A DNA stretch of 64,000 nt from assembly GCA_022820825.1 (NCBI GenBank), contig JAJEEU010000017.1, forward strand, positions 17,292-81,291, in the 5' to 3' direction. Every line of letters begins with the position of its first letter. Position 1 is the stretch's first letter. Both the position numbers and the translations under genes were made by a program. Under the pieces are notes generated by a model. That model did not search any database. It saw nothing but the letters and a program-made list of their open reading frames with translations, and was not told the origin of the DNA. Source of the DNA: Vicinamibacteria bacterium (lineage in GTDB: Bacteria > Acidobacteriota > Vicinamibacteria > Vicinamibacterales > UBA8438). Of the stretch, positions 26,895 through 44,528 are shown piece after piece.

Positions 26895-27698
26895 CTACTT
26901 GCCGCGGTAGTGGGAGACCGTGGGCCACGCGCCGCGCAATGATCCGCGGTGGCGTGCGAGCAAGGAGAACGCATCGGACGACGGATCGGGCGTGGCTGGC
27001 TGCTGATCCGCGTCCAGGTACAGGCAGCCGATTTCTGCGGGCGGAAGATCCGCCACCAGCTTTCGAGCTCGCGCGGCAGCCTCCAGCCACCGCTGCTTGA
27101 GGACGCCGAGATCGAGCGGCTCGCGAAGCGCCAGCCGGTCGAGATCACGCTGCGTATAGGCCGCATGCCGCGCCACTTGATCCAGCAGGAATTCCGGGGT
27201 GAAGCCCGGGTCCTTGCCGCACGCCGCCCACGCCAGTGCCCCAAGCGACAGGTACGTTTCTTCGAGGTGGAGCATATCGACGAAGTCGCGGATCTCGCTT
27301 CGGCCTGCCAGGGCCAGAACCTTGTTGACCGCGGCGTCCGCGTCGTGCAGGCGATAGCCGAGCCGGTCGTCTTCCTGAATCGGATAGAACCTGAAAGCGC
27401 TGTCCTGCGCCCACTCGATCTTCAACGACTCCGTGTCCGCCCGCACCACCGCGCGGTGGAAGGTGGGAGTCCGCAGCAGCCACGAGAAGTCAAAGCCGGC
27501 CGCTCCGAGCGTCGCAGCATCCGTTTCCGCGCATTGCGCGACGCTGTCCTCCAGGTCATGAAACAGATCGAGATCGAGCGAGTAGCGCGGAGTCCCCTCC
27601 GCACGGTTGAGCACGGTCGCTCCCGCGACATAGCTGTCGGGGCTGCGGTTGGCGGCGATGAGCCGCAGTACCTCCGCCTGGATTGTGCTCAACGGCAT
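26895..27698 (-). CDS. nucleotidyltransferase AbiEii/AbiGii-family toxin
   Basis: 267 aa. VAGATVLNRAEGTPRYSLDLDLFHD matches the GGxAL...R-x-S-x-DLD(L/F) NTase motif of AbiEii. Confidence 0.75.
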   Translation of the reverse strand: MPLSTIQAEVLRLIAANRSPDSYVAGATVLNRAEGTPRYSLDLDLFHDLEDSVAQCAETDAATLGAAGFDFSWLLRTPTFHRAVVRADTESLKIEWAQDSAFRFYPIQEDDRLGYRLHDADAAVNKVLALAGRSEIRDFVDMLHLEETYLSLGALAWAACGKDPGFTPEFLLDQVARHAAYTQRDLDRLALREPLDLGVLKQRWLEAAARARKLVADLPPAEIGCLYLDADQQPATPDPSSDAFSLLARHRGSLRGAWPTVSHYRGK

Positions 27699-29591: not shown

Positions 29592-32500
29592 TCACGTCAA
29601 GCCGAATCGGGACGCGACGTACTTCCGGGCGTCATCGTCGCCGAGCCGCACCGTGCCCGGGCCTGTCCGGACGTAGAGATCGCCGGTCGCGGCCTTTTCC
29701 ATGCCCTTCCAGCGCAGGTACACCGGCTCGGGGCTCCGCTGGCAGCTCACCAGGCAGACGGTCTTGCCGTCGACAATCTGCGTCTTGGGATCGATGCAGG
29801 TGCCGGCCGGGTCGCCGAGGCCGTTGCGCACCGCCTGGGCCAGGTGCCGCATGAACTTGTCATCGGACTCCAGACGGTCGTGCTCGATGCCGAGCACCTT
29901 GCGGTCGTCGGCCACGCCAATCAGGAGGTCGCCGCCCTCGGTGTTGAGGAACGCGGCAATGGTCTTCAGCGCGGCGTGGGTCACGTGCCTGTCGTCCTTG
30001 CGATCTTCCTTGAGGTTCCAGCGCACGCTCGACTTGAACTCCAACGTCTTCGACTCCTGGAGCTTGAGCAGTTCCTCGGCGCGCCGGTGCCGCCGGATGT
30101 AGTCGTCGAACAGGTAGTTCTTGAGCGCCCGGCCGAAGTCGGGATCGTCGGTGATGCGCTTGTAGAGGTCGAAGTTGGTCTCGACGATCTCCTGGATCTT
30201 GTCCTCGACCTTGGGGTCGAAGGTCAGCCGCACGTTCTCGCGGGTGTTCACCCTGGCGCTGGCGTCGAGGCCGGCATCCCCGTCAAGGGCCGAGCGGATG
30301 TACTCGAGCGTGACACGGTGCTCGGGGCCGAGGTCCAGGCCGAAGCGCTCGTTCAGCGCCTCGATGATCCGCGAGAGCGTCTCCAGCTCTTCCTCGCCGC
30401 CGCCGCGCGGTTTGCTCCCGGCGGGATCGAGCGGCTGGCCCTGCCGCTCCAGCGTGATCCGACCGCGGCTCGTCCGCTGGATGCGGAACGACTCCATGTC
30501 GATGTTCTGCTGGACCTCGCGCGGCAGCTTCTCGCGGTCGACCGGCAGCAGGCGCCGCAGGTGCCGGGCAAAGACGTGCAGCTTTTCCAGGTCGGGGTCG
30601 GCGAACGTCAGGACTTGGGAGAGGAACGCGTACAGGCGCACGTAGTCGCCGAGCTGGCCGCGGAAGTCGCGCCCCTCGTCGGGGTCGAGCTCCACGAAGC
30701 GCTGGCGCGCCGGCTCCAGCGCCGCGTAGAGCTTGTCCTGGGTCGCCTTGGGATCGAAATACAGCCGCGCCACGGTTCCGACATCGGCCGCGGTGAACAC
30801 GTCGAAGTCGAGCAGCCTGCCCTGCACCTCGTAGAGCAGGTTGGGGTCGGTTTCCTCCGAGAGCAGCGTGGTCTCGTAGTACGGCTCGAAGGCCTTCTTG
30901 ATCTCGTCGGCTTCGTTGGCGAAGTCGAGCACCATCGTGCCCTCCTTGCCGGGGTGGGTGCGGTTCAGGCGCGACAGCGTCTGGACGGCGTTCACGCCGC
31001 CGAGCTTCTTGTCCACGTACATCGTGTGGAGCAGCGGCTGGTCGAAGCCGGTCTGGAACTTGTTGGCGACAACCAGGAAGCGGTACTCGGGCTTCTCGAA
31101 CTCGGCGGCCGTCTGCCGCTCGCCTATGACGCGCTCCTGCCCGGCCGAGTTCATGCCCGACTCGGTGTGGCTCTCGCCGCCGTCCTTGACCGTTCCGGAG
31201 AAGGCGACAAGCGCCTTCCACGGATGGCCTTTCCCCGCAAGGTAGCTGTCCAGGACCATCTTGGTGCGCACCGCGTGCAGGCGCGAGCGGGTCACGATCA
31301 TCGCCTTGGCCCGCCCGCCGATAGCGCCCGCGGCCTGCGCCGCGAAGTGCTCCACGCAGATGGCGACCTTCTCGCGGACGGCATGCGGGTGCAGCTCGAC
31401 GAACGACTTGAGCAGGTACTCGGCCTTGCCCTTGTCGTAGTGCGGGTCGTCCTCGATCGTCTTGAGCAGCCGCCAGTAGGCCTTGTAGGTGGCGTAGCTT
31501 CCGAGCACGTCCAGGATGAAGCCCTCCTCGATGGCCTGACGCATGCTGTAGCGGTGAAACGGCTCGAACTTCCCGTCCGGCCGCTTCGTGCCGAACAACT
31601 CCAGCGTCTTGGGCTTCGGGGTGGCCGTGAAGGCAAACGTGGAGAGGTTCGGCAGGCGCCCGCGGCTGCGGATCTCTTCATGGATCCGCTCCTCGATCTC
31701 CTCTTCTGGAGTCTCGGTGCCCGCTTCCTCCTGCTCGGCTTCTTCCAGGCTCTCGGCCTTGAGCACCGCCTTGAGGCTCTTCGTGCTCTCGCCGGACTGC
31801 GACGAGTGCGCCTCGTCCACGATCACCGCGAAGCGCTGGCCGGGAAGCTGTCCGATCTGCTCCGCGATGACGGGGAACTTCTGCAGCGTCGTGACGATGA
31901 TCGTCCGTCCCGTCTCCAGCGCCTCCCGGAGCTGGCGCGAGGTCTGGTCGATGTTCTCCACGACGCCGAGGGTCTGCTCGAACTGCCGGATGGTGCGCTG
32001 GAGCTGGCGGTCGAGCACGCGCCGGTCCGTCACCACCACGACCGAGTCGAAGACACGCCGGTCCTCGCTGTCGTGCAGCACCGAGAGCTGGTGGGCGAGC
32101 CAGGCGATGGTGAAGCTCTTGCCGCTGCCGGCCGAGTGCTGGATCAGATAGCGCTCGCCGGGCCCGTGGTTGCGGGCGTGGCCGACGAGCCGGCGCACGC
32201 AGTCGAGTTGCTGGTAACGCGGAAAGATCAGGAAGCGCGCGCCGGTCTTGCGCCCGCGGTCGTCTTCAGCCTCCACCTCGTGAATGAACTGGCGGACGAG
32301 GTCGAGGACGCTGTCGCGGGCCCAGACGCGTTCCCACAGATAGTCGGTTGCAAAGCCCGGTCGCGTGGGCGGGACCGGCGGGTTCCCCGCCCCGCCGAAG
32401 CGACCCTGGTTGAACGGCAGGAAGCGGGTCTTGGGCCCGGCGAGCAAACTCGTCACGAACACCAGCTCCGGGTCCACGGCGAAGTGGGCGAGGCAGCGCC

Positions 32501-33125
32501 CGTAGGCGAACAGCGGCTCGCGCGGGTCGCGGTCGTTCTTGTACTGCCGGATCGCGTCCTCCACGTCCTGCCCGTTGAGCGGGTTCTTCAACTCCGCCGT
32601 GAAGATGGGTATGCCGTTCAGGAACAACGCAAGGTCCAGGCTCTGCTCGTCCTTCTCGCTGAAGCGGAGCTGCCGCACGACTGCGAAGAGGTTGGCCGCG
32701 TGCAGGCGCTGCAGCTCCTCGTTGAGCCCGCTTGCCGGCCGGAAGTACGCCAGCCGGAACTTACAGCCCGAGTCCTTGACGCCGCTGCGCAGCACGTCCA
32801 GCGCCCCCCGCCGGGCGATCTCGCGCGACAGCCGGCCGAGGAAGCGTGGCTTCACGTCGGCGCCGTGGTGCTGCGTCAGCTTCTCCCAAACCTTCGGCTG
32901 CGTGGCTAGGAGGAAGTCGACGACGTCGGTCGGGATCAGACACAGCCCGCGGTCGTAGTCCTCGGGCCGTCGCCTGTGGTAGCCGCCGGGCAGAGGGTCG
33001 TCGCCGAACTCCGGCGCCGACTCCCGCACGGCCGCCGCGTCGCCCGGGCACGCATCCGGCCCGTAGCGCAACAGCGCGCACTCGATGGCCTCCTCGAACG
33101 CGCGCTCGGAGATGTCGGCAGTCAT
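29592..33125 (-). CDS. hsdR: type I restriction enzyme R subunit fused to a C-terminal AlbA_2/Schlafen-like domain
   Basis: Real part of track ORF 29592..33659, starting at MTADISERAFEEAIE (ATG 33125; 1177 aa). Nuclease motif DLALFLNGIPIFTAELK. Helicase motifs HSAGSGKS, VIVDEAHSSQ, FAFTATP and LVVANKFQTGFDQP. Extra about 160-aa tail ESKTLEFKSS...ALKTIAAFLNTEGGDLLIGVADD...GIEHD. Confidence 0.9.
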   Translation of the reverse strand: MTADISERAFEEAIECALLRYGPDACPGDAAAVRESAPEFGDDPLPGGYHRRRPEDYDRGLCLIPTDVVDFLLATQPKVWEKLTQHHGADVKPRFLGRLSREIARRGALDVLRSGVKDSGCKFRLAYFRPASGLNEELQRLHAANLFAVVRQLRFSEKDEQSLDLALFLNGIPIFTAELKNPLNGQDVEDAIRQYKNDRDPREPLFAYGRCLAHFAVDPELVFVTSLLAGPKTRFLPFNQGRFGGAGNPPVPPTRPGFATDYLWERVWARDSVLDLVRQFIHEVEAEDDRGRKTGARFLIFPRYQQLDCVRRLVGHARNHGPGERYLIQHSAGSGKSFTIAWLAHQLSVLHDSEDRRVFDSVVVVTDRRVLDRQLQRTIRQFEQTLGVVENIDQTSRQLREALETGRTIIVTTLQKFPVIAEQIGQLPGQRFAVIVDEAHSSQSGESTKSLKAVLKAESLEEAEQEEAGTETPEEEIEERIHEEIRSRGRLPNLSTFAFTATPKPKTLELFGTKRPDGKFEPFHRYSMRQAIEEGFILDVLGSYATYKAYWRLLKTIEDDPHYDKGKAEYLLKSFVELHPHAVREKVAICVEHFAAQAAGAIGGRAKAMIVTRSRLHAVRTKMVLDSYLAGKGHPWKALVAFSGTVKDGGESHTESGMNSAGQERVIGERQTAAEFEKPEYRFLVVANKFQTGFDQPLLHTMYVDKKLGGVNAVQTLSRLNRTHPGKEGTMVLDFANEADEIKKAFEPYYETTLLSEETDPNLLYEVQGRLLDFDVFTAADVGTVARLYFDPKATQDKLYAALEPARQRFVELDPDEGRDFRGQLGDYVRLYAFLSQVLTFADPDLEKLHVFARHLRRLLPVDREKLPREVQQNIDMESFRIQRTSRGRITLERQGQPLDPAGSKPRGGGEEELETLSRIIEALNERFGLDLGPEHRVTLEYIRSALDGDAGLDASARVNTRENVRLTFDPKVEDKIQEIVETNFDLYKRITDDPDFGRALKNYLFDDYIRRHRRAEELLKLQESKTLEFKSSVRWNLKEDRKDDRHVTHAALKTIAAFLNTEGGDLLIGVADDRKVLGIEHDRLESDDKFMRHLAQAVRNGLGDPAGTCIDPKTQIVDGKTVCLVSCQRSPEPVYLRWKGMEKAATGDLYVRTGPGTVRLGDDDARKYVASRFGLT

Positions 33126-33157
33126 GGGACGGGGAGGTGGTCGTGTCCGCCGACTGT

Positions 33158-33568
33158 TCAGCGCGGTTCCAGGACGGAGAGACCGAGGTCCCGGAAGTCC
33201 GAAGTGTTCAGCGTCGCCAGGGAATAGCCGCGGCTCCGGGCCGTGCCGGCGATCTGGGAATCGGCCAGGCTCATCGGCGCGCCCGCGCGCCGCCGCTTGG
33301 CGCGAAGCCTCGCGCTCTCGGCGGCGGCCTGCGCGTCGAACGGGACGACGCGCTCCGAGAACCCGTCGACGATCTTCAAGAACGCCTGGCCCAGGCGCGC
33401 CCGTTTCCGTCCGGGCGGAAGTATCTCTATTCCGAAGAGAATCTCGTCGACGGTGACGGCGGAGAGATACAGGACCGAAGGAGGGTGTCCGTCCAACCAG
33501 CGCATCACACGCCCGTCCGGTTCGACGCGCATGGCTTCCGACAGCACGTTGGTATCCAGCAGGATCAT
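33158..33568 (-). CDS. vapC: PIN-domain toxin VapC (FitB-like)
   Basis: 136 aa. MILLDTNVLSE...SAVTVDEILFG...LADSQIAGTA...LATLNTSDF (PIN acidic residues). 4-nt overlap with the upstream antitoxin gene. Confidence 0.9.
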   Translation of the reverse strand: MILLDTNVLSEAMRVEPDGRVMRWLDGHPPSVLYLSAVTVDEILFGIEILPPGRKRARLGQAFLKIVDGFSERVVPFDAQAAAESARLRAKRRRAGAPMSLADSQIAGTARSRGYSLATLNTSDFRDLGLSVLEPR

Positions 33569-33822
33569 TCGGGATCGTCCTGGCCGTATGCGCCTGACGC
33601 GAAGTCGATCGGATCGTCGACCTCGGGCGCCGGCAGGTCGAAATCGACCGCATCGTCACCGATGATGCGGCGGATCATCGCGCCGGCCGGCTCCACGTTG
33701 ACGACGGCGCCCGCCAGGATGCGACGCACGGTCTCTTCCACGGACAGGCCGTCGCGTTGCGCCCGGATCTTCAGCCGCCGAATGACCTCGTCATCCAGGC
33801 GGCGTACACTCAAGCTCGCCAT
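33565..33822 (-). CDS. vapB: FitA/Arc-type ribbon-helix-helix antitoxin VapB
   Basis: Start at MASLSVRRLDDEVIRRLKIRAQRDGLSVEETVRRIL (ATG 33822, GAGGAG upstream). Acidic toxin-binding tail. Confidence 0.8.
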   Translation of the reverse strand: MASLSVRRLDDEVIRRLKIRAQRDGLSVEETVRRILAGAVVNVEPAGAMIRRIIGDDAVDFDLPAPEVDDPIDFASGAYGQDDPE

Positions 33823-33973
33823 GGGCCGCTCCTCTGGTTTCCTCAGGAATGCTAGCACACGCCACCGAAGTGCTTGCAATCAAAGACGTCCGCAACGCTC
33901 AAGCGCGTCGTCTCCTCACCAGACTTCGACGTCGAGGCCTGGAACGCGCGGCTGAAGGTGTCGAGGAGCCGGA

Positions 33974-34195
33974 TTATCGATGCGGCTCGATGTCCTCGGG
34001 CGGCGGATCGTCGGGTTCGACCAGGTCGCCGGCGTCCTGGTGCAGGAGGTCGACGAAGCTCCGCGGCCAGTCGGTCGCGACGGCGTCCCGTACCAGCCCG
34101 CCGATCCACACCGACAGACTGCGGTTCCGGCCGCGCGCCTCCTTGCGCGCAGCATCAATCAGGTCGCCCGGCAGATAGATGGTCACCGGAGGCAT
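33974..34195 (-). CDS. orphan ribbon-helix-helix (CopG/antitoxin-like) protein
   Basis: MPPVTIYLPGDLIDAARKEARGRNRSLSVWIGGLVRDAV is RHH-like, followed by an acidic tail. No adjacent toxin of its own. Start uncertain (34195 or 34216). Confidence 0.5.
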   Translation of the reverse strand: MPPVTIYLPGDLIDAARKEARGRNRSLSVWIGGLVRDAVATDWPRSFVDLLHQDAGDLVEPDDPPPEDIEPHR

Positions 34196-34264
34196 ATTGC
34201 ACACATATGCTGCCACATGTATCGGTCGTGATTGCGTTGGTGACCGTGAAGTCCGGCTCGAAGC

Positions 34265-35605
34265 TCATCCCAGCACCGCCTCCCGCACGTCGATCTTGCC
34301 GGTGACCGCCGCGGAGATCAGGGCGGTGCGGAATTCCTTGAGGTGGTCGATGGCTTCGCGCACCTTCGCGATGAGGGCGTCGATCTTGCCCGTCTCGCGG
34401 TCGAGGAACGCCGCGATTGCGCTTTGTTCGGGGACTGGGGGCCAAGACACCACAACCGGATGAACGAGGTTGCGGTTGACTGTTGGGTTAGCGGAGCCGG
34501 TGTCAAAGCTCGCGAGGTCCATGCTCATGAGCTTGAAGTACACGTATCGCGGGTGATTTCCACAGAAATCTTTCACATACAGCGTTGTATCGTGCGGCCA
34601 GAAATCGACTGTGATGTAGTGAACCGCACCAGCAGTCCCCTTTCTCCCAACGACAACCCCAGGAGCCGCGGTGAGTGCCACGTCGTGAAAAGAAGATATC
34701 CCGCCCGACGAAACTACAGGAACTTCCCCCTCTTGTTGCTCGTCCTTCGTGATATCGACTCCACGTTGCAGGGTGATTTCTCTCCCGATACGAACGATTC
34801 TCCAATCCTGCGGCACAGCCCCGGGCCAATCGATGCCGGAGGGCTTGAGCTTGGGGTGCGGGGCCAGACCGGCCAGACGTGCGGCGTCGGGCGGGAGGCC
34901 CCGGGAGACGGCGCGGCTGATAAGCGCGGTGCGCTTCTCCCGAAGCAGCTCGATCAGCCGCTCCTTCCTCGCCACCAGCGCATCGATCTGCGCCGTCTCG
35001 CGGTCGAGGAAGTCGGCGATGGCATGTTGTTCGTCCGATGGAGCCATCGACATACGAATTGCCCCGAGGATGGAGCCGCTCAGATTCCCGAGTCCGGTTG
35101 TGGTTGAGGAGAGAAAAACAAGCTGTTGACGGGCAACTGGGGAGTTCATGAAGTACCAGAAGAACTGCGGCGCGTGTTTAGCCGAGACTCTCAGACGCTG
35201 CATGAAGTTGGAGAAGCAACAGTTCAGGTCTGCGATTACCTCGTCGACAATCGAAGTCTTGCCGATATGATGGGAACTTCCGCTCGACTTCGTCACGAGC
35301 AGATCTCCTGCGCCGAGGCGGGCGCAGGTCGCGTCGCGAGCATCGAGTCGCCTCCGGGCTGGCTCGTCAATCCGCCAGCCACCCTCCACCGTTTGCTCGG
35401 TGGACCGCAGGACGATGGTACCGTCGTCATCGAAGTCCTGTCCCCAAACGCCGCTGTCGTTGCGGACCAAACCCGCCTTGATCGGCTTAACCTCCCAGTG
35501 CGCCGGGATCTGACCTAGCCACTCGACGCCGGAGTCCATGTACTCTGGGTACGGCCGGAAGCGCTGCGGTCGCACGTCGCCGGTCCGATCGATCAACTCA
35601 GTCAC
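34265..35605 (-). CDS. hsdS: type I R-M specificity subunit HsdS
   Basis: 446 aa, GTG start with GGAGG 8 nt upstream. Two TRD halves, each followed by the conserved helix (EQHAIADFLDRETAQIDALVARKERLIELLREKRTALIS and EQSAIAAFLDRETGKIDALIAKVREAIDHLKEFRTALIS). Confidence 0.9.
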   Translation of the reverse strand: MTELIDRTGDVRPQRFRPYPEYMDSGVEWLGQIPAHWEVKPIKAGLVRNDSGVWGQDFDDDGTIVLRSTEQTVEGGWRIDEPARRRLDARDATCARLGAGDLLVTKSSGSSHHIGKTSIVDEVIADLNCCFSNFMQRLRVSAKHAPQFFWYFMNSPVARQQLVFLSSTTTGLGNLSGSILGAIRMSMAPSDEQHAIADFLDRETAQIDALVARKERLIELLREKRTALISRAVSRGLPPDAARLAGLAPHPKLKPSGIDWPGAVPQDWRIVRIGREITLQRGVDITKDEQQEGEVPVVSSGGISSFHDVALTAAPGVVVGRKGTAGAVHYITVDFWPHDTTLYVKDFCGNHPRYVYFKLMSMDLASFDTGSANPTVNRNLVHPVVVSWPPVPEQSAIAAFLDRETGKIDALIAKVREAIDHLKEFRTALISAAVTGKIDVREAVLG

Positions 35606-35888
35606 CGTCTGCGCCTCCCGTCGGAGCTTGAACCCCTGGTCGCCAAAGCCCGCCCGCGGGCCACACCTGTGTGAACGGGCTCCTCTCGATCAGGTTGTCG
35701 CAGACCGGTCCCAGGAAGCGCCGCAACTCGTCGCCGGCTGTCGTTAGCCGGGCCGGATCGCCGGATTCCGGCTCTGTCGGAGAGTGGGTACCCGCCAGTG
35801 TTGCGAGGGCAGCCTGAGCGAAGCCCCATTTACCGCCAGATAGATGTCGCCAACCGCCGTTAGTGAAGTCCCCGGCATGCTCCGGCAT
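35598..35888 (-). CDS. hypothetical 96-aa protein (weak call)
   Basis: Internal Met of track ORF 35598..36029 (MPEHAGDFTNGGWRHLSGGKWGFAQAAL...). Its stop overlaps the hsdS start by 8 nt. No recognisable domain. It fills an otherwise 323-nt gap. Confidence 0.25.
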   Translation of the reverse strand: MPEHAGDFTNGGWRHLSGGKWGFAQAALATLAGTHSPTEPESGDPARLTTAGDELRRFLGPVCDNLIERSPFTQVWPAGGLWRPGVQAPTGGADGD

Positions 35889-35928
35889 GTGAACGCAGCG
35901 ATTCTGACTCGCGGCGGCTCTGGAAGTG

Positions 35929-38265
35929 TCACTCGGGCCAGTGCTTCTGGCGGTAGTCGAGTAATGCCTGCCCTGAGAGTTCCTCGGTCGCGTTGTTGAG
36001 GCGTACAAAGAAGACCTCGCGCGGATCACCCTTTCTCGTTGCGAATACCGGCTCGACGACGGGACGAATATCTATCCGGGCGATCGTCTTGCCGTCAACC
36101 TTGCAGAAGTGCACGGAAAGATCCGTGGCGGCGACCGTGCCTAGGGCTTTCTTGACAACGGCCGTTAACCAGAGCTCCCAGCCGTCACGGTTGCCTCCCT
36201 TCACGAGTGGGTAGTCCTCCTCGATGCCGACTGGTTGGCCATCATCGCCGGCACCAATCAATAGCGTGCCGCCGTGGGTGTTCATGAAGGCCGCGATAGT
36301 CTTGATTACCGACCATGCGATCTCCGGATCCCGTGCCCGCGTATGCCGGTTGCGACTTGCCGTCGATTTGAATTCGACCACGGCGGATTCGCCGTCGTCG
36401 AGTAGTGAGCGTACGCTCTGTTCGATGTCCACATCCTGCGCGGCAAACGGACTCTCGTCACGCTCGGGTCGCCGGTTCACGGGCTTGCCCATGGCGCGTT
36501 CGGCATGTCGGAGCAGGCTCTCGAACCGCTGGTTGAAGAACTGCTCGAAGTTATCCCGGCGTAGTGCCGAGGGATCGATGTCGTGGGAGCGCAGGAAACC
36601 GTCGAGTACGTGTGGTTCGATACCATCGCCCGACTCGATCCGTGGGAGATAGATACTGGGCGCGTTGCCGCCGATGCGGCGGTTCGTGTGCGCGTCAAGT
36701 GCAGTCTTGTTCACAATGCAGTCGGCGATCTTCCAATCGATTCTGCGTTCGGGATCGTCGCACCAGTGCCGCGGAAAAATGTGATGGATGTCGATGGCAT
36801 CCTCCATGTACGCGTGGATGTCGATCGGCTGGCCAGTCTTGAAGTCGCGGGCGCCCTGCTTCATCTGGAGCGCGTACAACCCCTTGTAGGCGGCGCTGTT
36901 GCGCGTGCGCAGCGTGAGCAGCCGTTCGGCCTGGAACTGTGCCGCCTGCACCGTACGCGGCGCTACGTTGTCGGCACGATCCTCGATCCAAGCAATGCAA
37001 TCCTCCAGATCGTTGGCGAACCGCGTTTCCGCCGCGCCGCCGTACATCTCGCCGAGGACGCCGCACCAGAACCACTGCCCGAGCCGCTGGCGCGACGCGT
37101 ACGATTCCGCCAGATCTTCCATCCATCCGAAGATGGCCCCGAGAGGCACCAACTGGGTCGCGTACGGCAGCTCCCGGTAGCGGAAGATATGGTGGTTGTG
37201 CAGGAACGGTACCGCGCGCAACAGGCCGCGCTCGGCGACGTCCGCCCATTCCTTGTAGTCGTCGAGCTGTAGTCGCAGCACCTCGCGGCGCTTGCACGAA
37301 ACAGCGGGCGCCTTGTCGTCCTGTGGATGTACCCGCAGGTGTGATCGGCGCCGGTCATAGGTGGCGAGTAGCGTAACGATTTGCAGGAACGCAGTTGCGT
37401 CTACTCCGGCCAGAAGCTCATGTTGTGCGAGTCGCTCGTGCCGCTCGTCCCAGTCCTTGCGCAACTCGAAGTCGCCAGCCGCGTACGTCGCGGTCAAGAG
37501 TTCGAAGACCGTCAGCGTGACGCCGCCCGTGTTGACCTTCTCGAACACTTGGCAGACGGCCTCCTTGGGCGTCGACTTCGCCAAATCGATCGTCGGCACC
37601 TGGTACTGTTCAAACGGAACAATGATTGCGTCCTCAAATTGTTCCCACTTGGTCCAACGATCAGACTGGTTTCCCTGTCCCGAGCGCAGGTATGCTCTCT
37701 CCCAGGCCCTTCTATCGCTGGAGTCGAGAATGATGTCCAGCGGAAACATCTCTGCCGCGATTTCTCGGTCGCGGCTGCTCACGTCCAGGTCGATCACGCG
37801 GCCGAAGTCGCTTCGCACGATGCGATCTGCGGGGACGCCGACGATACCCATTTCTTCGCGGTCTATAGACGGATCTATGCAAGCGCGGATACTGGCGTAG
37901 TAGTGACGGTGCAACTCGTTGCCGCGGCGGTCCCGCGTGCAAACTGGGTCGCGGGACTTCAGGGCCTGAAAGAGCGACGTCAATCGCTGCTGTCCGTCGA
38001 GCAGGAGAAGGTCGGGCTCCGGTGCGGCTGCCAACCTCACGCCTTCCAGTAGGCGAGCCTTAAAGTTGACGTCGGGGTTGCCGGCAACGAGCGTCATGAC
38101 CGCGCCGATCGGATACGAAAGCGAAATCGATGCCAGCAGACTGCGGATGTGGTCGTCGTCCCACACCCAGCCGCGCTGGAAATCTGGTAGTTGTAACTCG
38201 CCGCGCGCGGCTTGATCGAGTAGTTGCGCCAGTGGCAATTCGTCGCTGCTGAATTTCTTCTCCAC
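35929..38265 (-). CDS. GmrSD-like type IV restriction enzyme (DUF262 + DUF1524-type His-Me nuclease) fused to a C-terminal AlbA_2/Schlafen-like domain
   Basis: 778 aa, GTG start with GAGGAG upstream. LQLPDFQRGWVWDDDHI and LLLLDGQQRLTSL (DUF262/ParB-like). IDIHHIFPRHWC...NKTALDAHTNRRIGGNAPS (DUF1524-like). Tail GESAVVEFKST...VIKTIAAFMNTHGGTLLIGAGDD...GIEED. Confidence 0.85.
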   Translation of the reverse strand: MEKKFSSDELPLAQLLDQAARGELQLPDFQRGWVWDDDHIRSLLASISLSYPIGAVMTLVAGNPDVNFKARLLEGVRLAAAPEPDLLLLDGQQRLTSLFQALKSRDPVCTRDRRGNELHRHYYASIRACIDPSIDREEMGIVGVPADRIVRSDFGRVIDLDVSSRDREIAAEMFPLDIILDSSDRRAWERAYLRSGQGNQSDRWTKWEQFEDAIIVPFEQYQVPTIDLAKSTPKEAVCQVFEKVNTGGVTLTVFELLTATYAAGDFELRKDWDERHERLAQHELLAGVDATAFLQIVTLLATYDRRRSHLRVHPQDDKAPAVSCKRREVLRLQLDDYKEWADVAERGLLRAVPFLHNHHIFRYRELPYATQLVPLGAIFGWMEDLAESYASRQRLGQWFWCGVLGEMYGGAAETRFANDLEDCIAWIEDRADNVAPRTVQAAQFQAERLLTLRTRNSAAYKGLYALQMKQGARDFKTGQPIDIHAYMEDAIDIHHIFPRHWCDDPERRIDWKIADCIVNKTALDAHTNRRIGGNAPSIYLPRIESGDGIEPHVLDGFLRSHDIDPSALRRDNFEQFFNQRFESLLRHAERAMGKPVNRRPERDESPFAAQDVDIEQSVRSLLDDGESAVVEFKSTASRNRHTRARDPEIAWSVIKTIAAFMNTHGGTLLIGAGDDGQPVGIEEDYPLVKGGNRDGWELWLTAVVKKALGTVAATDLSVHFCKVDGKTIARIDIRPVVEPVFATRKGDPREVFFVRLNNATEELSGQALLDYRQKHWPE

Positions 38266-38494
38266 TTACTCTCCTCAATCGACGAACCTCACCGGACCGC
38301 CACGAGATCCGGCAAATTCACGCATGATCGGACGTCCGCGTCGACGCGCGACGGTTGGAAGTCTATGCGCCGGAACATGCCGTCGCAAGCAACGCGAAGG
38401 TTGTCCGGTTGGTTGTCGTCTCGGCCCGACGGGCTTCAAGGTTAGGTGGTTCTCGCTTTCGGATACGCCGATTCGGAGTGAAGCACTGCGTCAG

Positions 38495-38752
38495 TCAGCG
38501 ATCTTCCGCACCACGGCGCAGAACTCGCACGCGCAGCAGGTGCCACTGCAATAACGCTCGCGTGTCACGCCGTCCGTCCGCGATCACAAGAAAGTAGACG
38601 CCGTCTCCCATGACGCGGTAGGTGATCCGGTACGGCTTGAAGAATGCCTCCCGGTACTCCGGAATGCCGAGCTCCAGCAATTCTCTCGGGTGGCTGCCGC
38701 GTTCGGAGAACGCGGACAACGCGTGGACGGCTTGCTCGATCCGCTCCAGCAC
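38495..38752 (-). CDS. ParE/RelE-family toxin, apparently N-terminally truncated
   Basis: ERGSHPRELLELGIPEYREAFFKPYRITYRVMGDGVYFLVIADGRRD is a ParE-like core. The only start is GTG 38752. The frame continues upstream as RHHDLEATIDYPSAKAQH to an in-frame TGA at 38807-38809, which is also the antitoxin stop. Confidence 0.65.
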   Translation of the reverse strand: MLERIEQAVHALSAFSERGSHPRELLELGIPEYREAFFKPYRITYRVMGDGVYFLVIADGRRDTRALLQWHLLRVRVLRRGAEDR

Positions 38753-38806
38753 GTGCTGCGCCTTGGCGGAGGGGTAGTCGATGGTCGCTTCGAGGTCGTG
38801 GTGGCG

Positions 38807-39007
38807 TCATCGGTCAACTAGGCCGCGAAGGGCGTTCAGTCGGCCCTGTCGCCGGTCTCGAAGCTGCGCCACGACCTCGACGGCGGGCCGCACCTGGCCG
38901 GCTTCGATCTGACGCTTGCCCAGCGCCAACATCTTGAGCAGAGCCGCGCTCTCCTGCATCCGCTCGAAGCCTTCGGTGCCGGGCTGTGCGGGGCTGTGGC
39001 GCGCCAT
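38807..39007 (-). CDS. short ParD-like antitoxin
   Basis: 66 aa. AALLKMLALGKRQIEAGQVRPAVEVVAQLRDR resembles the C-terminal half of ParE-cognate antitoxins. Its ATG overlaps the hsdM stop (TGATG). Confidence 0.55.
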   Translation of the reverse strand: MARHSPAQPGTEGFERMQESAALLKMLALGKRQIEAGQVRPAVEVVAQLRDRRQGRLNALRGLVDR

Positions 39008-41118
39008 CAGCCCGACATCTCCTGCAGCATGTCCACTATCTCCTTCTCGACTCGCTGGATGTCGGCCTCGATCTCCTCCAGCGGGCGGGGCGGGCGGTAT
39101 TCGTAGAAGTGGCGGTTGAAGTTGATTTCGTAGCCGACGAGTCCGACCTCTCCGTCTTGCGGATCCCGGCGGTTCGTATCGATCCAGGCGTCGGGTACGT
39201 GGGGCTTGACCTCGCGCTCGAAGAATGACTCGACGGCGTCGCTGAGGGGCATGTTCTCCGTGTCTCGCAGCTCGGGGTCGGGTTCGGGGCGGCCATCCCG
39301 GTCGCGGCAGATCTCCGCTTTTGGGTTGCGTTCGGCCAGCGCGGAGAGAATGGCCTTCCGGATGGGCGCGGCAAGTTTGAGATCCGTCTCTCGAGCCGCG
39401 TCCGACAGTTTGGCCTCGAATAGAGCTCGGTCGAGGAAGAGGTCGTCCGGCAGGCTCCGCAGCAGGGCTCGGAGCGCTGCCTGTTGCTTGCGCCCGGCCT
39501 CTTCGTCCCTGGCCTTGGTAGCGCCCTTCTTGCGCGACACGGCCAGGTTGGCGAAGGCGCGCTGGTCGTCGAGCCGTGCGATCCGCTCGGGACTGGCCTG
39601 GAAGTCGAGCCTGAGAGGGCGTTCGACGGTGATCTTGCGGAAGCCGAAGTGCGTGGTCGGGTAGACGCGGCTGACGACGGCCTCGTGCTCTTCGCCGTCT
39701 TGGTCGACCGTGCGCGTCGCGCCGTCCTGGAAGTCAGCGAGTAGTCGTAGAACCTCCTGCTTCCGGCCGAAAGGGACCTCGCGACGCTTGGCGCCCAGGC
39801 TCTTGCGCAGCAGGGTCCAGAATGAACTGGCATTGATGAGTTGAACCTTGCCGCGGCGCTGGGGCCGCTTGCGGTTCGTGAGCACCCAGACGTAGGTGGC
39901 GATGCCGGTGTTGTAGAAGAGCTGCTCGGGCAGGGCGATCAGCGCCTCGAGCAGGTCGTTCTCGAGGATCCAGCGGCGGATCTCGCTCTCGCCGCTCCCG
40001 GCGTCGCCGGTGAAAAGGGGCGAGCCGTTCATGATGATGGCGACCCGCGAGCCGCCCTGGGTGGATTCCTTGACGTGCGCGAGCATGTGCTGCAGGAACA
40101 GGAGTTGGCCGTCACTGATGCGCGGCAGGCCCGGCCCGAAGCGCCCGGCAGCGCCCCGGTCGTGCTCGTCGCGCACCGCGTCCTGGTCACGCTTCCAGTC
40201 CTTGCCGTAAGGCGGATTGGCGATCATGTAGTCGAAGGAGCCGGCGGCGTGCCGGTCGTTCGAGAGCGTGCTCCCGAAGACGACGTTCTCCGCGTCGCGG
40301 CCGTCCTGCGACTTCATGAAGAGGTCCGACTTGCAGATGGCGAACGTCTCCGGGTTCACCTCCTGGCCGAACAGGTGGATGTCGGCGTCGGGGTTCACCG
40401 GGTCGCCGAGGTGTTTGCTGTCGCGTATCTCCCCGACCGTGATGTGCTCCTTGGCGATGGTGAGCATGCCTCCAGAGCCGCAGCACGGGTCGTAGACGCT
40501 CAGGACAACCCCTTTCGTCTGCAGGCGCTGTTCATCGCCGGCCAGCAGTAGGTCGAACATCAGGTGCACGACGTCGCGGGGGGTGAAGTGCTCGCCGGGG
40601 TTCTCGTTCAGCGCCTCGTTGAACTTCCGGATGAGCTCCTCAAAGATCGTGCCCATCACGGCGTTGTCGACCGCGTCCGGGTGCAGGTTCACCTGCGGAT
40701 CGCCGAATCGCTGCACGACCTGGAACAGGAGCCCGGCCTCGTCGAGCTTCGAGATGGTGTTGTCGAAGTCGAACTTCTCCAGCACCTCCCGCATGTTGGG
40801 GCTGAACCCGGCGATGTAGTTGCGCAGGTTCTGTGCGATGTGTGGCGCGTCGGCGAGCAACTTCTCGAAGTCGTAGCGCGACGTGTTGTAGAAGGCGAAT
40901 CCGGAAGCGCGCTGGAGCAAACCGTCGAGGTTATCGAGCTTGCCCTTGTACCTCGCCTGGACCTCCATCACCTTCGGCTTGGTGGGGGCCAGCACGCAGT
41001 CAAGCCGGCGCAGCACCGTGAGTGGCAGGATCACGTCTTGGTACTTGCTGCGCTTGAACGTGTCGCGGATCAGGTCCGCCACGCCCCAGATGAAGTTGAC
41101 GATCTGGCTGTGATTCAT
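39007..41118 (-). CDS. hsdM: type I R-M N6-adenine DNA methyltransferase HsdM
   Basis: 703 aa. IVNFIWGVADLIRDTFKRSKYQDVILPLTVLRRLD N-domain, VYDPCCGSGGML (motif I) and DYMIANPPYGKDW (motif IV). Confidence 0.95.
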   Translation of the reverse strand: MNHSQIVNFIWGVADLIRDTFKRSKYQDVILPLTVLRRLDCVLAPTKPKVMEVQARYKGKLDNLDGLLQRASGFAFYNTSRYDFEKLLADAPHIAQNLRNYIAGFSPNMREVLEKFDFDNTISKLDEAGLLFQVVQRFGDPQVNLHPDAVDNAVMGTIFEELIRKFNEALNENPGEHFTPRDVVHLMFDLLLAGDEQRLQTKGVVLSVYDPCCGSGGMLTIAKEHITVGEIRDSKHLGDPVNPDADIHLFGQEVNPETFAICKSDLFMKSQDGRDAENVVFGSTLSNDRHAAGSFDYMIANPPYGKDWKRDQDAVRDEHDRGAAGRFGPGLPRISDGQLLFLQHMLAHVKESTQGGSRVAIIMNGSPLFTGDAGSGESEIRRWILENDLLEALIALPEQLFYNTGIATYVWVLTNRKRPQRRGKVQLINASSFWTLLRKSLGAKRREVPFGRKQEVLRLLADFQDGATRTVDQDGEEHEAVVSRVYPTTHFGFRKITVERPLRLDFQASPERIARLDDQRAFANLAVSRKKGATKARDEEAGRKQQAALRALLRSLPDDLFLDRALFEAKLSDAARETDLKLAAPIRKAILSALAERNPKAEICRDRDGRPEPDPELRDTENMPLSDAVESFFEREVKPHVPDAWIDTNRRDPQDGEVGLVGYEINFNRHFYEYRPPRPLEEIEADIQRVEKEIVDMLQEMSG

Positions 41119-41502
41119 GTCGGGTCCGGTACGAACCTAACACCCTATCCGTCTTTGCCCAGCCAGTCCAACCACAGCGAACCGCTGCAGAACACCGCGA
41201 ATGGCGCCGACGAACGCACGAACTCCACCGGTGGACGCACGACGACGGAGCCTGGATGCCGTCTGGACGCAAGGACAGCAAGGCCCAGCGGGCCATGTAC
41301 GCGCGGCCTCAACGTCAACGCGTTGGCCGTGGTGAAGCCATGCTGTTCAGCCGCCACTGACTACGCCGCACGGCTGGCGTTGGCTAGGTGACTGTGTCCG
41401 CCAACGGCAAAGTACCCATTCACATCGCTTCACCAAGTCGATGCGGATCTCAAGTCATGTATTATTGACGGCATGCTTTTTTTACTGGGCATGGAGGTTT
41501 AG

Positions 41503-42795
41503 TTGTCAGCACATACAGAATTTCACTCTACGACCTTGAGCGATGCGGACATCTTGGTCGCCGTCAAGAAAATAGCCTCTGAATTGGAGCAGGTTCCAGA
41601 GCAATGCCGCGTCGACGTAGAAATCATGGAGCGATACACCGGGAATCCGGAGGGGCTCTCACTGTCTCAGATCACGAGTCAACCATTCGCGCGACATGCG
41701 GAGGAGCACGGCGGCGCATCATGGAAGCGCGTCTTGATTGAGTTCCAACCTTTGACGCTGCGCCTGAACGTGCAACGCGACCGAGAACGAGGTGATGACG
41801 CAATCCACGTATCGTTTCGGGAGGATCCTTCGGATCCCGTTGATGTGGTCCGTTCACTCAACGCCATTCAACAGCATTTTATTCCGTTGAACCGAGCGGA
41901 AGCAATAGAGCGTGCGCTTGGGCCGGAAATGGCTGAGTTCTATCGCCTGCGCGAAGATGGCCTGTCGCGCCTGGAAGCATTGACGCGAAGGCTCGTAGGC
42001 GAGACGCACGAGTACCGATTGCGACTCGATACGGAGGTGGCCGAACACAAGCAGGCGTTGAGTGTGTCATTTGACGAAAAGAATGAGGAGTTGGAAAAGA
42101 CACATGAAGAGCGAGCCGCCGCCTTGGAAGCACGCGAACGAGAGTTGGATGAGCGACGCCGTGAACTTGACGACCGTAGCGCGCGGCATGCTCGGCGGGA
42201 GCAAAGTAGAGCCCTGCAACAGAAGATCTCGGATCGCTCGGAGAAATTCACACTAACGCCCGAAACACAGCGTAAGCGGCGGCCAATACACCTGATATTC
42301 GCGGGTCTTCTTCTTGTTTCAGCAGGGTTGGTCGCTCGTTCATTGTTTATTCCGGTAGCGGCAACTGAAGGTGTGGCGTCGTGGTTGGAGCTAGTACGGT
42401 TGCCGCTGGGCGTGTTGGGATTCGCCCTTACTGCTGTGTTCTATATTCGATGGAACGATCAGTGGTTTCGGCAGCATGCGGACCAGGAGTTCCGGCTTCA
42501 ACAACTCGCCCTCGATGTTGATCGAGCTGGTTACGCCACAGAGATGTTGCTGGAGTGGCAGGAGGACAAAAGTGGCGAGATGCCCGCGGTTATGGTTGAT
42601 CGCCTCACGACCGGTCTGTTCACGGATCAGACGAAGATGGCGAGCGTGCGACATCCGTCGGAGGATGTCGCAGCGGCGTTACTGAAGGCGTCGTCAAGTG
42701 TACGGGTGGACATACCTGATATCGGAGAGGTTACGTTGACCGGGCGGAATATTCGCAAGCTAGACCGGAACTTGGCGAAAAAGCGCGAGCCGTAA
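41503..42795 (+). CDS. orphan coiled-coil / two-TM membrane protein, unknown function
   Basis: 430 aa, TTG start with GGAGG 5 nt upstream. Soluble N-domain (aa 1-135), charged coiled coil (about aa 140-245: EKNEELEKTHEERAAALEARERELDERRRELDDRSARHARRE), TM helices at about aa 262-285 and 293-316, and a 110-aa C-terminal tail. AT-richer than its surroundings. Confidence 0.7.
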   Translation: MSAHTEFHSTTLSDADILVAVKKIASELEQVPEQCRVDVEIMERYTGNPEGLSLSQITSQPFARHAEEHGGASWKRVLIEFQPLTLRLNVQRDRERGDDAIHVSFREDPSDPVDVVRSLNAIQQHFIPLNRAEAIERALGPEMAEFYRLREDGLSRLEALTRRLVGETHEYRLRLDTEVAEHKQALSVSFDEKNEELEKTHEERAAALEARERELDERRRELDDRSARHARREQSRALQQKISDRSEKFTLTPETQRKRRPIHLIFAGLLLVSAGLVARSLFIPVAATEGVASWLELVRLPLGVLGFALTAVFYIRWNDQWFRQHADQEFRLQQLALDVDRAGYATEMLLEWQEDKSGEMPAVMVDRLTTGLFTDQTKMASVRHPSEDVAAALLKASSSVRVDIPDIGEVTLTGRNIRKLDRNLAKKREP

Positions 42796-42901
42796 TGGCC
42801 GTGCGTTATAGAGGGGCTTACGGAGCGGCTGAAAGTGCAGCGTGTGACCGTGCGAGCGCGGGCAACTTGGCGTTTCCGTCCGGCGCCACGGTTGGTGACT
42901 C

Positions 42902-43288: not shown

Positions 43289-43332
43289 AGCGCACGGCGG
43301 CACTCCCTTTCAACCGGTCCATCCCCGCCTGC

Positions 43333-43824: not shown

Positions 43825-43847
43825 GAGTCTGGCTCCTTCCGTGCGGG

Positions 43848-44366: not shown

Positions 44367-44474
44367 GGTTCTTCCTCCCGTGGTTGATCGGTGCGGCGCG
44401 TGATGTGCGTTCGAACGAATCCGTAGCGTAGCACTTCCCCCGGTTGCGTCAAGGAGCGCCCGGCGTCCCCCTGC

Positions 44475-44528
44475 TTGCGTGTCCGGCGCGCGATTCGGTA
44501 GGATGAGATACCCGACCAATCCGGTCGG
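44475..44528 (+). promoter_or_regulatory. possible suf operon promoter plus inverted repeat
   Basis: TTGCGT (44475-44480), 18-nt spacer, TAGGAT (44499-44504). CCGACC-N5-GGTCGG inverted repeat at 44512-44528, 35 nt upstream of sufB. Read by eye only. Confidence 0.25.

Follow-up and report, generated by a model that had tools for sequence, protein, structure and literature searches.

In the window, that is, the whole stretch of 64,000 nucleotides analysed here, a type I R-M operon encodes two proteins, the restriction subunit HsdR and a DUF262 (GmrSD_N) protein, each of which ends in a C-terminal domain assigned by sequence to the Schlafen/AlbA_2 family. The fusions have separate origins and were brought together by gene insertion, and their tails are evolutionarily uncoupled, so the locus represents a variation on a defence design reported only recently rather than a shared control layer. 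By analogy with characterised relatives, we favour, with reasonable though not high confidence, a parallel use of one promiscuous effector domain, by which each enzyme would couple DNA sensing to an RNA-directed backup.

The operon runs in the order hsdM, cargo genes, hsdS, cargo genes and hsdR. Both minus-strand ORFs from which the original prediction had quoted tail peptides were present as described. Gene calls on the identical metagenome scaffold L082 were used for comparison, and the features are as follows:

39007..41118, minus strand: hsdM, type I methyltransferase subunit, 703 aa (Pfam N6_Mtase, E 8e-55; HsdM_N, E 1.9e-25)
38807..39007, minus strand: 66-aa ORF directly after hsdM, called as a gene on L082
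38495..38752, minus strand: ParE-family toxin inside the operon, 85 aa (Pfam ParE_toxin, E 1.5e-07), also called on L082
35929..38265, minus strand: DUF262 (GmrSD_N) protein with C-terminal Schlafen domain, 778 aa
35977..36390, minus strand: Schlafen/AlbA_2 domain of the DUF262 protein, residues 626–763 (PF04326, E 1.9e-13)
35604..35756, minus strand: remnant of an AbiEii toxin gene (last 51 codons) just upstream of hsdS, located by tblastn
34265..35605, minus strand: hsdS, specificity subunit, 446 aa (two stretches matching Pfam Methylase_S, E 1e-15)
33974..34216, minus strand: 80-aa ORF between hsdS and the FitA/PIN pair, where L082 has a 73-aa gene call
33565..33879, minus strand: FitA-like ribbon-helix-helix antitoxin (Pfam FitA-like_RHH, E 8.1e-13), an 85-aa gene on L082
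33158..33568, minus strand: PIN-domain (VapC-like) toxin, 136 aa (Pfam PIN, E 1.8e-13), the same on L082
29592..33125, minus strand: hsdR, type I restriction subunit with C-terminal Schlafen domain, 1177 aa
29646..30056, minus strand: Schlafen/AlbA_2 domain of HsdR, residues ~1024–1160 of 1177 (PF04326, E 1.5e-18)

HsdM is 75–92% identical in related operons, and HsdS mostly 32–42%, as expected for variable target-recognition domains. Among the small cargo genes, the ParE_toxin match scored 32.3 bits (the cut-off being 23), and the 66-aa ORF preceding it, which had no Pfam match, is by its position a candidate antitoxin for it. The 80-aa ORF gave a single, sub-threshold match to DUF6364 (E 0.018). 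Scans of the window found neither tRNA genes nor Rfam matches, and across the operon region no terminator-like sites were detected on the minus strand.

HsdR was identified through Pfam matches to HSDR_N, SWI2_SNF2, ResIII, DEAD, T1R_D3-like and SLFN_AlbA_2, a match to PADLOC REase_I (E 4e-35), and the D...ELK, GSGKS and DEAH motifs visible in its translation. It thus combines an HSDR_N nuclease with SF2 motor domains, and its gene shares a same-strand cluster with hsdM and hsdS, as befits a type I restriction subunit. The match to TIGR00348 (NCBIfam hsdR) spanned residues 144–751 with 208.4 bits, below the cut-off of 284.55, and is taken to mean that this HsdR lineage is divergent, not that it falls outside the family. 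The mechanically delimited ORF (33659..29592, 1355 aa) includes an Arg-rich N-terminal extension that is spurious and overlaps the PIN gene; the true start is MTADISERAF at 33125, with which the gene call on L082 concurs.

Judged from sequence and its predicted fold, the extreme C-terminus of HsdR is a single-lobe Schlafen domain of ~160 aa, gained as a clean add-on. This tail (ESKTLEFKSS...KTIAAFLNTEGGDLLIGVADD...GIEHD) matched PF04326 (SLFN_AlbA_2) with 67.9 bits and an E value of 1.5e-18 over residues 1202–1338 of the 1355-aa ORF, above the gathering score of 25.3 bits. Its AlphaFold2 (AF2) model was confident (pLDDT 96.8, pTM 0.92), and in a Foldseek search against the PDB the top 28 matches were all AlbA_2, SLFN or SAMD9 structures (3lmm, SLFN5/11/12/13/14 and SAMD9), as had been anticipated. 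Tail-less HsdRs with 62–64% identity terminate at the position matching residue ~1012–1016 of the HsdR encoded in the window, which is exactly where the tail starts.

The N-terminal part of the DUF262 protein matched GmrSD_N (PF03235) over residues 12–261 (E 6.4e-30; 105.2 bits, cut-off 33.2), and its DGQQR motif was invariant among 28 homologues. The family profile matched BrxU (7p9k, E 6e-4) and SspE in this N-terminal part; two further collinear segments with BrxU were weak, and the BrxU C-terminus likewise aligned weakly with the protein. The earlier description as a DUF262/DUF1524 enzyme holds for its first half only: GmrSD_C (DUF1524, PF07510) was not detected at E ≤ 0.01 in the whole protein or at E ≤ 1 in its C-terminal half, for which HNH_4 (E 0.17) was the sole Pfam match in this search. 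The canonical GmrSD_N + GmrSD_C cargo gene of locus L067 likewise gave no BLASTP match to the protein. A conserved motif was nonetheless apparent, with D492-x-H494-x-x-F-P498 and N519 invariant and N528 present in 22 of the 28 homologues; H494 sits one position off EHxxP, the His-Me nuclease motif of GmrSD_C.

The tail of the DUF262 protein (ESAVVEFKST...KTIAAFMNTHGGTLLIGAGDD...GIEED) also scored above the gathering score of PF04326 (51.4 bits, E 1.9e-13), and its profile aligned with SLFN8/13, SLFN14, SLFN11 and CbCash, in keeping with the Schlafen/AlbA_2 identity proposed for both tails. A full-length AF2 model, computed from a shallow alignment (28 homologues with 72–88% identity), had a mean pLDDT of 40 and was not used. 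Tail-less relatives, the existence of which had been expected for both enzymes, are 44–52% identical to the DUF262 protein and terminate near residue 600. The DUF262–Schlafen architecture itself was found in at least 120 database clusters (72–100% identity).

The two tails are homologous, as predicted, with 38% BLASTP identity over 127 aa (E 3e-20), which is far beyond chance. This level of protein identity, together with the many differences in the DNA alignment, excludes a recent intra-locus duplication, in agreement with the earlier assessment. Both tails contain Ex4(E/D)xK and a third carboxylate ~40–45 residues downstream, aligned with residues of pig SLFN11. The putative RNase site comprises E1024, E1029, K1031 and D1073 in the HsdR tail, and E626, E631, K633 and D674 in the DUF262 tail, the latter invariant in the 28 homologues. 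In the profile alignment, HsdR ESktlEFK corresponds to ESQSIEFK of pig SLFN11, and the conserved Asp is the second D of GVDD; by residue count, these four positions match E204/E209/K211/D248 as named in PMC10359600, where the E/E/K/D residues of the pig enzyme are needed for RNase activity. ESKTLEFK is unbroken in 77 of 81 related HsdR tails, and among 86 diverse relatives E-x4-E-x-K and the Asp downstream of it hardly vary.

Once activated, prokaryotic Schlafen domains cleave tRNA, and their Ex4DxK residues are required for defence (PMC13056530). Papers from 2025–26 describe them as fused to varied sensors and often R-M-linked (PMC13056530, PMC13462974, bioRxiv 10.64898/2026.05.29.728809), with more than half of the defence-associated homologues linked to R-M or other nucleases (PMC13462974, bioRxiv 10.64898/2026.05.29.728809). 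Examples are Cash, a cA4-activated tRNase (PMC13462974), a Schlafen–Argonaute fusion that cuts tRNA (bioRxiv 10.64898/2026.05.29.728809), and EcoSlfn7, a DUF262–Schlafen protein that defends E. coli and lowers T7 plating ~540-fold (PMC13056530; Taboada et al., Nat Microbiol 2026). By analogy, each tail in the window probably cuts tRNA.

Possession of all three carboxylates is no guarantee of RNase activity: human SLFN5 has the intact triad and reportedly lacks the activity (PMC10359600). The tails might thus be nucleic-acid-binding or DNA-directed helpers, which would hold ssDNA or structured DNA, or nick at stalled complexes, without RNase activity or translational shutdown. Two of the fold matches, hSAMD9 DBD with DNA (7ksp) and SLFN5-N, described as DNA-binding (7cux), are consistent with such a role, as is the fact that both host proteins act on DNA. 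We nevertheless consider it unlikely, as, in the literature consulted, every prokaryotic Schlafen examined by experiment cleaves tRNA and RorSlfn5 caused no DNA damage (both PMC13056530, PMC13462974), while K1031 and K633 match the lysine reported to be invariant in RNase-active SLFNs (PMC10359600). Moreover, relatives without a tail exist for both enzymes, so the tail is dispensable for the core DNA function.

HsdR–Schlafen is a widespread and highly conserved family in which the core–tail fusion is real and constrained. It accounted for 383 matches in GTDB species-representative genomes, and core and tail were contiguous in the 80 loci examined, a few truncated copies excepted. Across these loci, the tail is 81–93% identical and the core 79–91%, so that the tail is conserved like the motor core; even in a relative with only 47% identity, which has an extra Peptidase_S24 domain, core and tail are still collinear. 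This conservation bears on whether the tails could be inert evolutionary leftovers, with a resemblance devoid of functional consequence. Tail-less relatives of both enzymes are common, and tail-less HsdRs (62–64% identity) are closer to the window enzyme than the tailed 47% relative, which implies that the tail is gained or lost readily. Set against the conservation of the HsdR tail, the near-invariance of the active-site residues, and the retention of the tail in DUF262–Schlafen homologues over 55–100% identity, the leftover interpretation is hardly credible. HsdR–Schlafen is widespread in Acidobacteriota and was also found in several other phyla. It was absent from the plasmid collection, where the matches were confined to Schlafen fusions of other kinds and to DUF262 relatives without a tail.

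The slots between hsd genes collect small defence and toxin–antitoxin modules, as in many type I operons. Among the 80 loci, the hsdM–hsdS slot contains AbiEi/AbiEii in 35–38 and Fic/DOC in 11, and in a few loci it holds kinase, PIN or tail-less GmrSD genes. A DUF262–Schlafen gene occupies it in only one of the 80 related HsdR–Schlafen operons. Both fusions were found together in four operons (window/L082, L006, L084 and L167). All in-operon DUF262–Schlafen copies belong to one clade (identity of at least 82%), as would be expected had the gene been acquired once, and genes below that identity (55–80%) were never found in an hsd operon. Stand-alone copies occur in L086, L168, L169, L170 and ~15 metagenome loci, and nucleotide homology to them spans the coding sequence only, end to end. 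The occurrence of four operons with both fusions exceeds random placement, and some benefit may derive from the combination.

The insertion left a trace in the form of the AbiEii remnant, which was recovered by tblastn with residues 269–319 (of 321) of the AbiEii protein of L084 (69% identity, E 5e-17). At the nucleotide level, the stretch shares 74–84% identity with the region immediately preceding hsdS in ~40 related operons, and AbiEii was confirmed as the upstream gene in L084 and L167. The remnant upstream of hsdS indicates that the DUF262–Schlafen gene replaced earlier cargo. Sequence comparison further shows that the two tails do not form sister lineages: the HsdR tail is most closely related to ~420-aa proteins and to fusions with RNase HII, TPR, PLD and S1 rather than to DUF262 tails. 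Gene conversion between the tails was considered and rejected, as in-operon DUF262 tails (36–38% identical to the HsdR tail) are no closer to it than most stand-alone copies (31–36%).

These observations also weigh on the original prediction that the tail, being shared, marks an input common to the two enzymes or couples them physically. According to this proposal, the tails would be a shared regulatory or sensor module that binds the same ligand, whether a nucleic-acid feature, a phage protein or a small molecule, or binds mutually, so that the type I and the type IV-like enzymes are co-controlled, in its strongest form as a heterodimeric pincer resembling the N- and C-lobes of eukaryotic Schlafens. 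The homology of the tails and the presence of both fusions in the four operons speak for it; eukaryotic Schlafen N-terminal domains are pseudo-dimers and a single-lobe Schlafen needs a partner lobe, which makes hetero-pairing physically conceivable (PMC10359600). In addition, AlbA_2 was first annotated as DNA-binding, and the SAMD9 domain among the fold matches (7ksp) binds DNA. The proposal is nonetheless improbable and unsupported: the domain acts as an effector in the literature, the pairing is rare and secondary, with AbiE or Fic in most of the other operons, and the tails are neither sister clades nor more alike within operons than outside them, so that no convergence is seen. Furthermore, the catalytic residues are kept, which a pure sensor would not need. 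That the two tails should pair as a heterodimeric RNA clamp, with tRNA cut only when both enzymes are engaged, as a two-input gate between two restriction systems, is more improbable still.

The parallel use of one effector domain could be envisaged as follows. A BrxU/GmrSD-like DUF262 module, which had independently gained its Schlafen tail, was inserted as a self-contained single gene into the hsdM–hsdS slot and displaced the AbiEi/AbiEii pair in the lineage of the window. Each tail would be a metal-dependent RNase, likeliest a tRNase, which is inactive as a single lobe. The trigger would be engagement of foreign DNA by the DNA-directed part, through translocation on unmethylated DNA within the R2M2S1 complex in the case of HsdR and through nucleotide and DNA binding in that of the DUF262 module, or else blockage of that part by a phage anti-restriction protein. 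Tails would then be brought together or released, and paired tails would constitute an active RNA-binding clamp, which would cut tRNA and stop translation as a growth-arresting, RNA-directed backup to DNA restriction. The trigger and the activation by pairing are inferred only by analogy with Cash filaments, RorSlfn5 oligomers and the eukaryotic pseudo-dimers.

With respect to known systems, the 778-aa protein resembles pSlfn/EcoSlfn7 in combining DUF262 with a C-terminal Schlafen domain and Ex4(E/D)xK, a likeness of architecture. The pSlfn logic is also shared, in that a variable sensor is joined to a Schlafen domain as RNase effector and the gene is often found among defence genes, but the DUF262–Schlafen gene of the window lies inside a type I R-M operon, unlike the stand-alone EcoSlfn7-type gene. 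Its position between hsd genes is the same as that of RloF, a DUF262 gene long known within type I loci (PMC4619093, PMC12707154). In common with GmrSD, BrxU and SspE, the protein has an N-terminal DUF262 domain with DGQQR and, as mentioned, aligns with N-terminal BrxU; unlike them, it has no Pfam-detectable DUF1524 and carries the Schlafen tail.

Schlafen modules on R-M subunits have been reported as fusions to HsdS in Poribacteria (bioRxiv 10.64898/2026.05.29.728809) and to methyltransferases, along with R-M-linked clusters (PMC13462974). The window adds the motor-nuclease subunit HsdR as a host, in contrast to HsdS or a methyltransferase, and its tail consists of one bare lobe that lacks the GHKL/ATPase partner found in the 'Schlatpase' module. 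The N-terminal nuclease domains of eukaryotic SLFN11, 12, 13 and 14 and the tRNase domain of SAMD9 share the fold of the HsdR tail model and the same E, E, K and D. However, eukaryotic Schlafens are two-lobe pseudo-dimers in one chain, whereas the bacterial tails are single lobes of ~140–160 aa that presumably pair.

A functional analogy, without homology to the tails, is provided by PrrC, which the type Ic enzyme EcoprrI keeps latent and which a T4 inhibitor of EcoprrI activates (PMC1484252, PMC12707154). In both cases the hsd operon encodes a tRNA-directed nuclease, here putative, in physical association with a type I R-M enzyme, and we propose as a shared logic that engagement or inhibition of DNA restriction sets off a backup at the RNA level. 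Whereas PrrC is a protein in its own right, with an ABC-ATPase N-domain and a distinct nuclease fold, the Schlafen fold of the window is covalently joined to HsdR; the PrrC/RloC domains (ABC-ATPase N-domain and PrrC-type C-terminal nuclease) were absent from all operon proteins. That an anti-restriction factor may activate the HsdR encoded in the window is a hypothesis.

The Schlafen effector role, the R-M linkage and the DUF262 fusion are already published, so the gain is incremental. The reservation that such fusions might be common and already characterised applies to DUF262–Schlafen, through EcoSlfn7, and not to HsdR–Schlafen. Full-text search located no paper that names the latter, and it goes unmentioned in the main text of PMC13056530, a study that tabulates 55 architectures. 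If the HsdR tail were an active tRNase, the family would be one of type I restriction enzymes that contain their own effector of translation arrest, and the PrrC–EcoprrI principle would be compressed into one polypeptide. It would also offer a tractable system for what activates R-M-linked Schlafen nucleases, the question of the 2026 Schlafen papers, for which DNA translocation, cleavage products and anti-restriction proteins are candidates. More generally, the locus presents type I operons as landing pads for swapped defence modules, with the AbiEii remnant marking the swap.

Finally, matches of 200–320 aa that appeared to contain AlbA_2 only were rejected as stand-alone proteins, being mostly fragments or internal-start calls of HsdR–Schlafen. 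Locus P0006 was found to be an HsdR stump interrupted by an insertion sequence.

Both large proteins of the type I operon, HsdR and the 778-aa DUF262 protein, carry a C-terminal domain that was matched by the Pfam SLFN_AlbA_2 profile at 67.9 and 51.4 bits (cut-off 25.3), and the two tails were aligned with each other over 127 aa at 38% identity (E 3e-20). The original prediction that both enzymes end in a homologous AlbA_2/Schlafen domain (PF04326) with shared motifs was thus confirmed, and this identity also upholds its claim that the tails do not stem from a recent duplication. A profile search of the PDB with the HsdR tail retrieved Schlafen N-terminal domains, with ESQSIEFK of pig SLFN11 aligned to ESktlEFK of the tail, and the second aspartate of GVDD to the conserved aspartate of GVaDD. 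By residue count, the putative catalytic residues of the HsdR tail (E1024, E1029, K1031 and D1073) correspond to E204, E209, K211 and D248 of SLFN11, in which E204A, E209A and K211A remove RNase activity and D248A has a smaller effect (PMC10359600). The fold of the HsdR tail was predicted from an 86-sequence alignment with a pLDDT of 96.8 and a pTM of 0.92, and the top 28 PDB matches of the model were all AlbA_2, Schlafen or SAMD9 tRNase/DNA-binding domains, so that the assignment of this tail also holds at the level of predicted structure. The catalytic positions are almost invariant across this diverse alignment, 77 of 81 HsdR tails keep ESKTLEFK unaltered, and the equivalent residues of the DUF262 protein (E626, E631, K633 and D674) are invariant among 28 DUF262-Schlafen proteins.

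Five or six cargo genes, including the DUF262 gene, are interleaved with hsdM, hsdS and hsdR, as follows (window positions):

41118..39007, minus, hsdM
39007..38807, minus, 66-aa ORF, a candidate partner of ParE in a small toxin-antitoxin pair after hsdM
38752..38495, minus, ParE toxin
38265..35929, minus, DUF262 protein, 778 aa
35756..35604, minus, AbiEii remnant, 51 aa, 69% identical (E 5e-17) to the intact AbiEii of L084, a database locus used for comparison
35605..34265, minus, hsdS
34216..33974, minus, 80-aa ORF with no assigned function
33879..33565, minus, FitA-like RHH antitoxin, pairing with the PIN toxin
33568..33158, minus, PIN toxin, before hsdR
33125..29592, minus, hsdR, 1177 aa

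Two small toxin-antitoxin pairs, at 38495-39007 and 33158-33879 on the minus strand, lie within the hsd operon. The longest hsdR ORF begins at 33659, and its first 178 codons are arginine-rich and overlap the PIN gene (33126-33659, minus). This extension is a high-G+C artefact, and the protein actually begins with MTADISERAF at 33125, in agreement with the gene call on L082, a metagenome scaffold whose operon is identical.

The HsdR-Schlafen fusion gave 383 matches in species-representative genomes, of which the best 80 belong mostly to Acidobacteriota (Vicinamibacterales), with a few from Chloroflexota, Gammaproteobacteria and Longimicrobiales; the window itself is thus probably of Vicinamibacterales origin. 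Across these best 80 loci, the HsdR core match ends where the tail match starts, except in a few truncated copies, and tail and core are equally conserved (81-93% versus 79-91% identity). Tail-less HsdRs (62-64% identity) terminate at the equivalent of window residue ~1012-1016, which makes the tail a clean ~160-aa addition at the C-terminus. In databases, more than 950 sequences from several phyla are close to the tail (70-90% identity), most of them fragments that retain the conserved HsdR C-terminal helices, and the 1329-aa database protein P0291 is 47% identical to the window HsdR over its full length, with core and tail collinear. This is an old fusion, whose tail was gained or lost more than once. 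At its C-terminus, beyond the Schlafen domain, P0291 bears an additional Peptidase_S24 (LexA-like) domain, giving a three-part architecture that hints at control by self-cleavage. Outside its own family, the HsdR tail is nearest (45-50% identity) to P0286, P0289, P0295 and ~100 other proteins of ~390-450 aa, which combine a C-terminal Schlafen domain with a ~270-aa N-terminal part without Pfam match, and to fusions with RNase HII, TPR, PLD-like and triple-S1 domains; DUF262 tails were absent from its best 150 matches. Some HsdR-Schlafen genes are 5'-truncated by insertion sequences or rearrangements (L001 10001-10846; also L007, L027, L038 and L069), and their tails survive as short "AlbA_2-only" ORFs, which make stand-alone AlbA_2 proteins seem more numerous in databases than they are.

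The DUF262 protein contains DGQQR and a conserved histidine-containing motif, and gave no match to Pfam GmrSD_C. Its own profile was aligned with BrxU at the N-terminus (E 6e-4), with two further collinear segments aligned weakly, and, compared with the EHxxP motif of GmrSD_C, the invariant histidine is displaced by one position. The protein should be called DUF262/BrxU-like rather than a verified GmrSD; of the earlier designation as a DUF262/DUF1524 enzyme, only the first half is verified. DUF262-Schlafen proteins form a large family, in which at least 120 clusters, with identities of 72-100%, have this architecture. Copies at least 82% identical lie in HsdR-Schlafen operons (window/L082, L006, L084 and L167), and those at 75-80% are stand-alone, with, in one case each, MmeI-type genes, a PglZ cluster, housekeeping genes or a nearby type IIG enzyme as neighbours. 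Some 15 metagenome copies (55-76% identity) have no hsd genes within the sequenced context. Tail-less homologues of the DUF262 core (44-52% identity) are likewise found in hsdM-DUF262-hsdS-hsdR operons together with tail-less HsdRs, and the link of the family to type I operons is therefore independent of the tails. DUF262 genes in such operons were previously known as RloF (PMC4619093).

The final 153 nt before hsdS (35756..35604, minus) encode the last 51 residues of an AbiEii toxin, which shows that an AbiE module formerly sat in the slot now occupied by the DUF262-Schlafen gene. This stretch is conserved directly upstream of hsdS in ~40 related operons, and in L084 and L167, where the AbiEii gene is intact, it forms the 3' end of that gene. 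At the nucleotide level, the DUF262-Schlafen gene is homologous to its stand-alone copies from start codon to stop codon and no further. In the simplest history, an ancestral hsdM-AbiEi-AbiEii-hsdS-hsdR(Schlafen) operon would have gained the DUF262-Schlafen gene, and AbiE would later have been lost in the window lineage, leaving the remnant, while L084 and L167 would have kept it beside the new gene. In these two loci (L084 9317-14167 and L167 9192-14099), AbiEi-like ORFs flank the DUF262-Schlafen gene: the upstream side gave a weak AbiEi_4 match, and the downstream side has an intact AbiEi/AbiEii pair. This arrangement suggests that the gene was inserted beside or into a duplicated AbiEi.

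The shared tail had been proposed to give HsdR and the DUF262 enzyme a common input or to couple them. Such an arrangement is physically possible, but the pairing of the two tails is restricted to one clade, and the model is accordingly weakly supported on comparative grounds. Among the best 80 of 383 loci, a DUF262-Schlafen gene lies between hsdM and hsdR only in L006, and the space is instead occupied by AbiEi/AbiEii (35-38 loci) or Fic/DOC (11 loci); the co-occurrence counts cover the 80 best among 383 and among 546 confirmed matches, together with eight look-ups. A few loci carry a protein kinase, a PIN gene or a tail-less GmrSD_N+GmrSD_C gene there, and the hsdM-to-hsdR spacing varies from 1.3 to >6.4 kb among related loci. 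With 36-38% identity to the HsdR tail, in-operon DUF262 tails do not resemble it more closely than most stand-alone ones do (31-36%). Co-occurrence of both fusions is most simply explained by cargo insertion rather than by a shared control layer.

Work from 2025-26 has established prokaryotic Schlafen domains as tRNA-cleaving effectors fused to varied sensors (PMC13056530, PMC13462974, bioRxiv 10.64898/2026.05.29.728809). DUF262-Schlafen is an already known architecture: it accounts for 1.8% within a set of 55 prokaryotic Schlafen architectures, and its member EcoSlfn7 protected E. coli against phages, T7 among them (PMC13056530). Among defence-associated Schlafens, over half show a link to R-M or other nucleases, with some methyltransferase fusions (PMC13462974), and HsdS has been found fused with a Schlafen-ATPase module (bioRxiv 10.64898/2026.05.29.728809). 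A literature search covering the main text of articles found no description of the HsdR-Schlafen fusion, which seems to be a widespread variant of the Schlafen-effector theme that has so far gone undescribed. The original prediction recognised a real domain correctly, its interpretation having been largely overtaken by this literature; of its two fusions, the DUF262 one was already known.

HsdR retains D...ELK, GSGKS and DEAH, both DNA-directed enzymes are intact, and each tail has a complete catalytic set. We infer that the tails are RNases, probably tRNases, acting as a second, RNA-directed effector. They would probably become active upon pairing or higher-order assembly, since they are single-lobe and the eukaryotic domains are two-lobe pseudo-dimers; precedents are the Cash filaments (PMC13462974) and the RorSlfn5 oligomers (PMC13056530). 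A plausible trigger would be R2M2S1 complexes translocating or colliding on unmethylated DNA. Another, by analogy with PrrC, which is activated when an anti-restriction protein inhibits EcoprrI (PMC1484252, PMC12707154), could be inhibition by such a protein.

As to the surroundings, G+C is 0.61-0.65 at 34000-46000 versus ~0.69-0.74 across most of the remaining window, and this region comprises the cargo-rich operon half as well as genes upstream of hsdM, one of them a Macro-domain ORF (43333-44190). No tRNA genes were found within the window. Beyond the GSDH gene and ~2 kb past the hsdR 3' end, an ORF (26895-27698, minus) gave a partial AbiEii match (E 1.2e-06); given its overlap with a plus-strand ORF, it is a possible rather than a certain gene. 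In L082 and L084, as in the window, hsdR is followed by the GSDH gene, suggesting that the chromosomal site is conserved.
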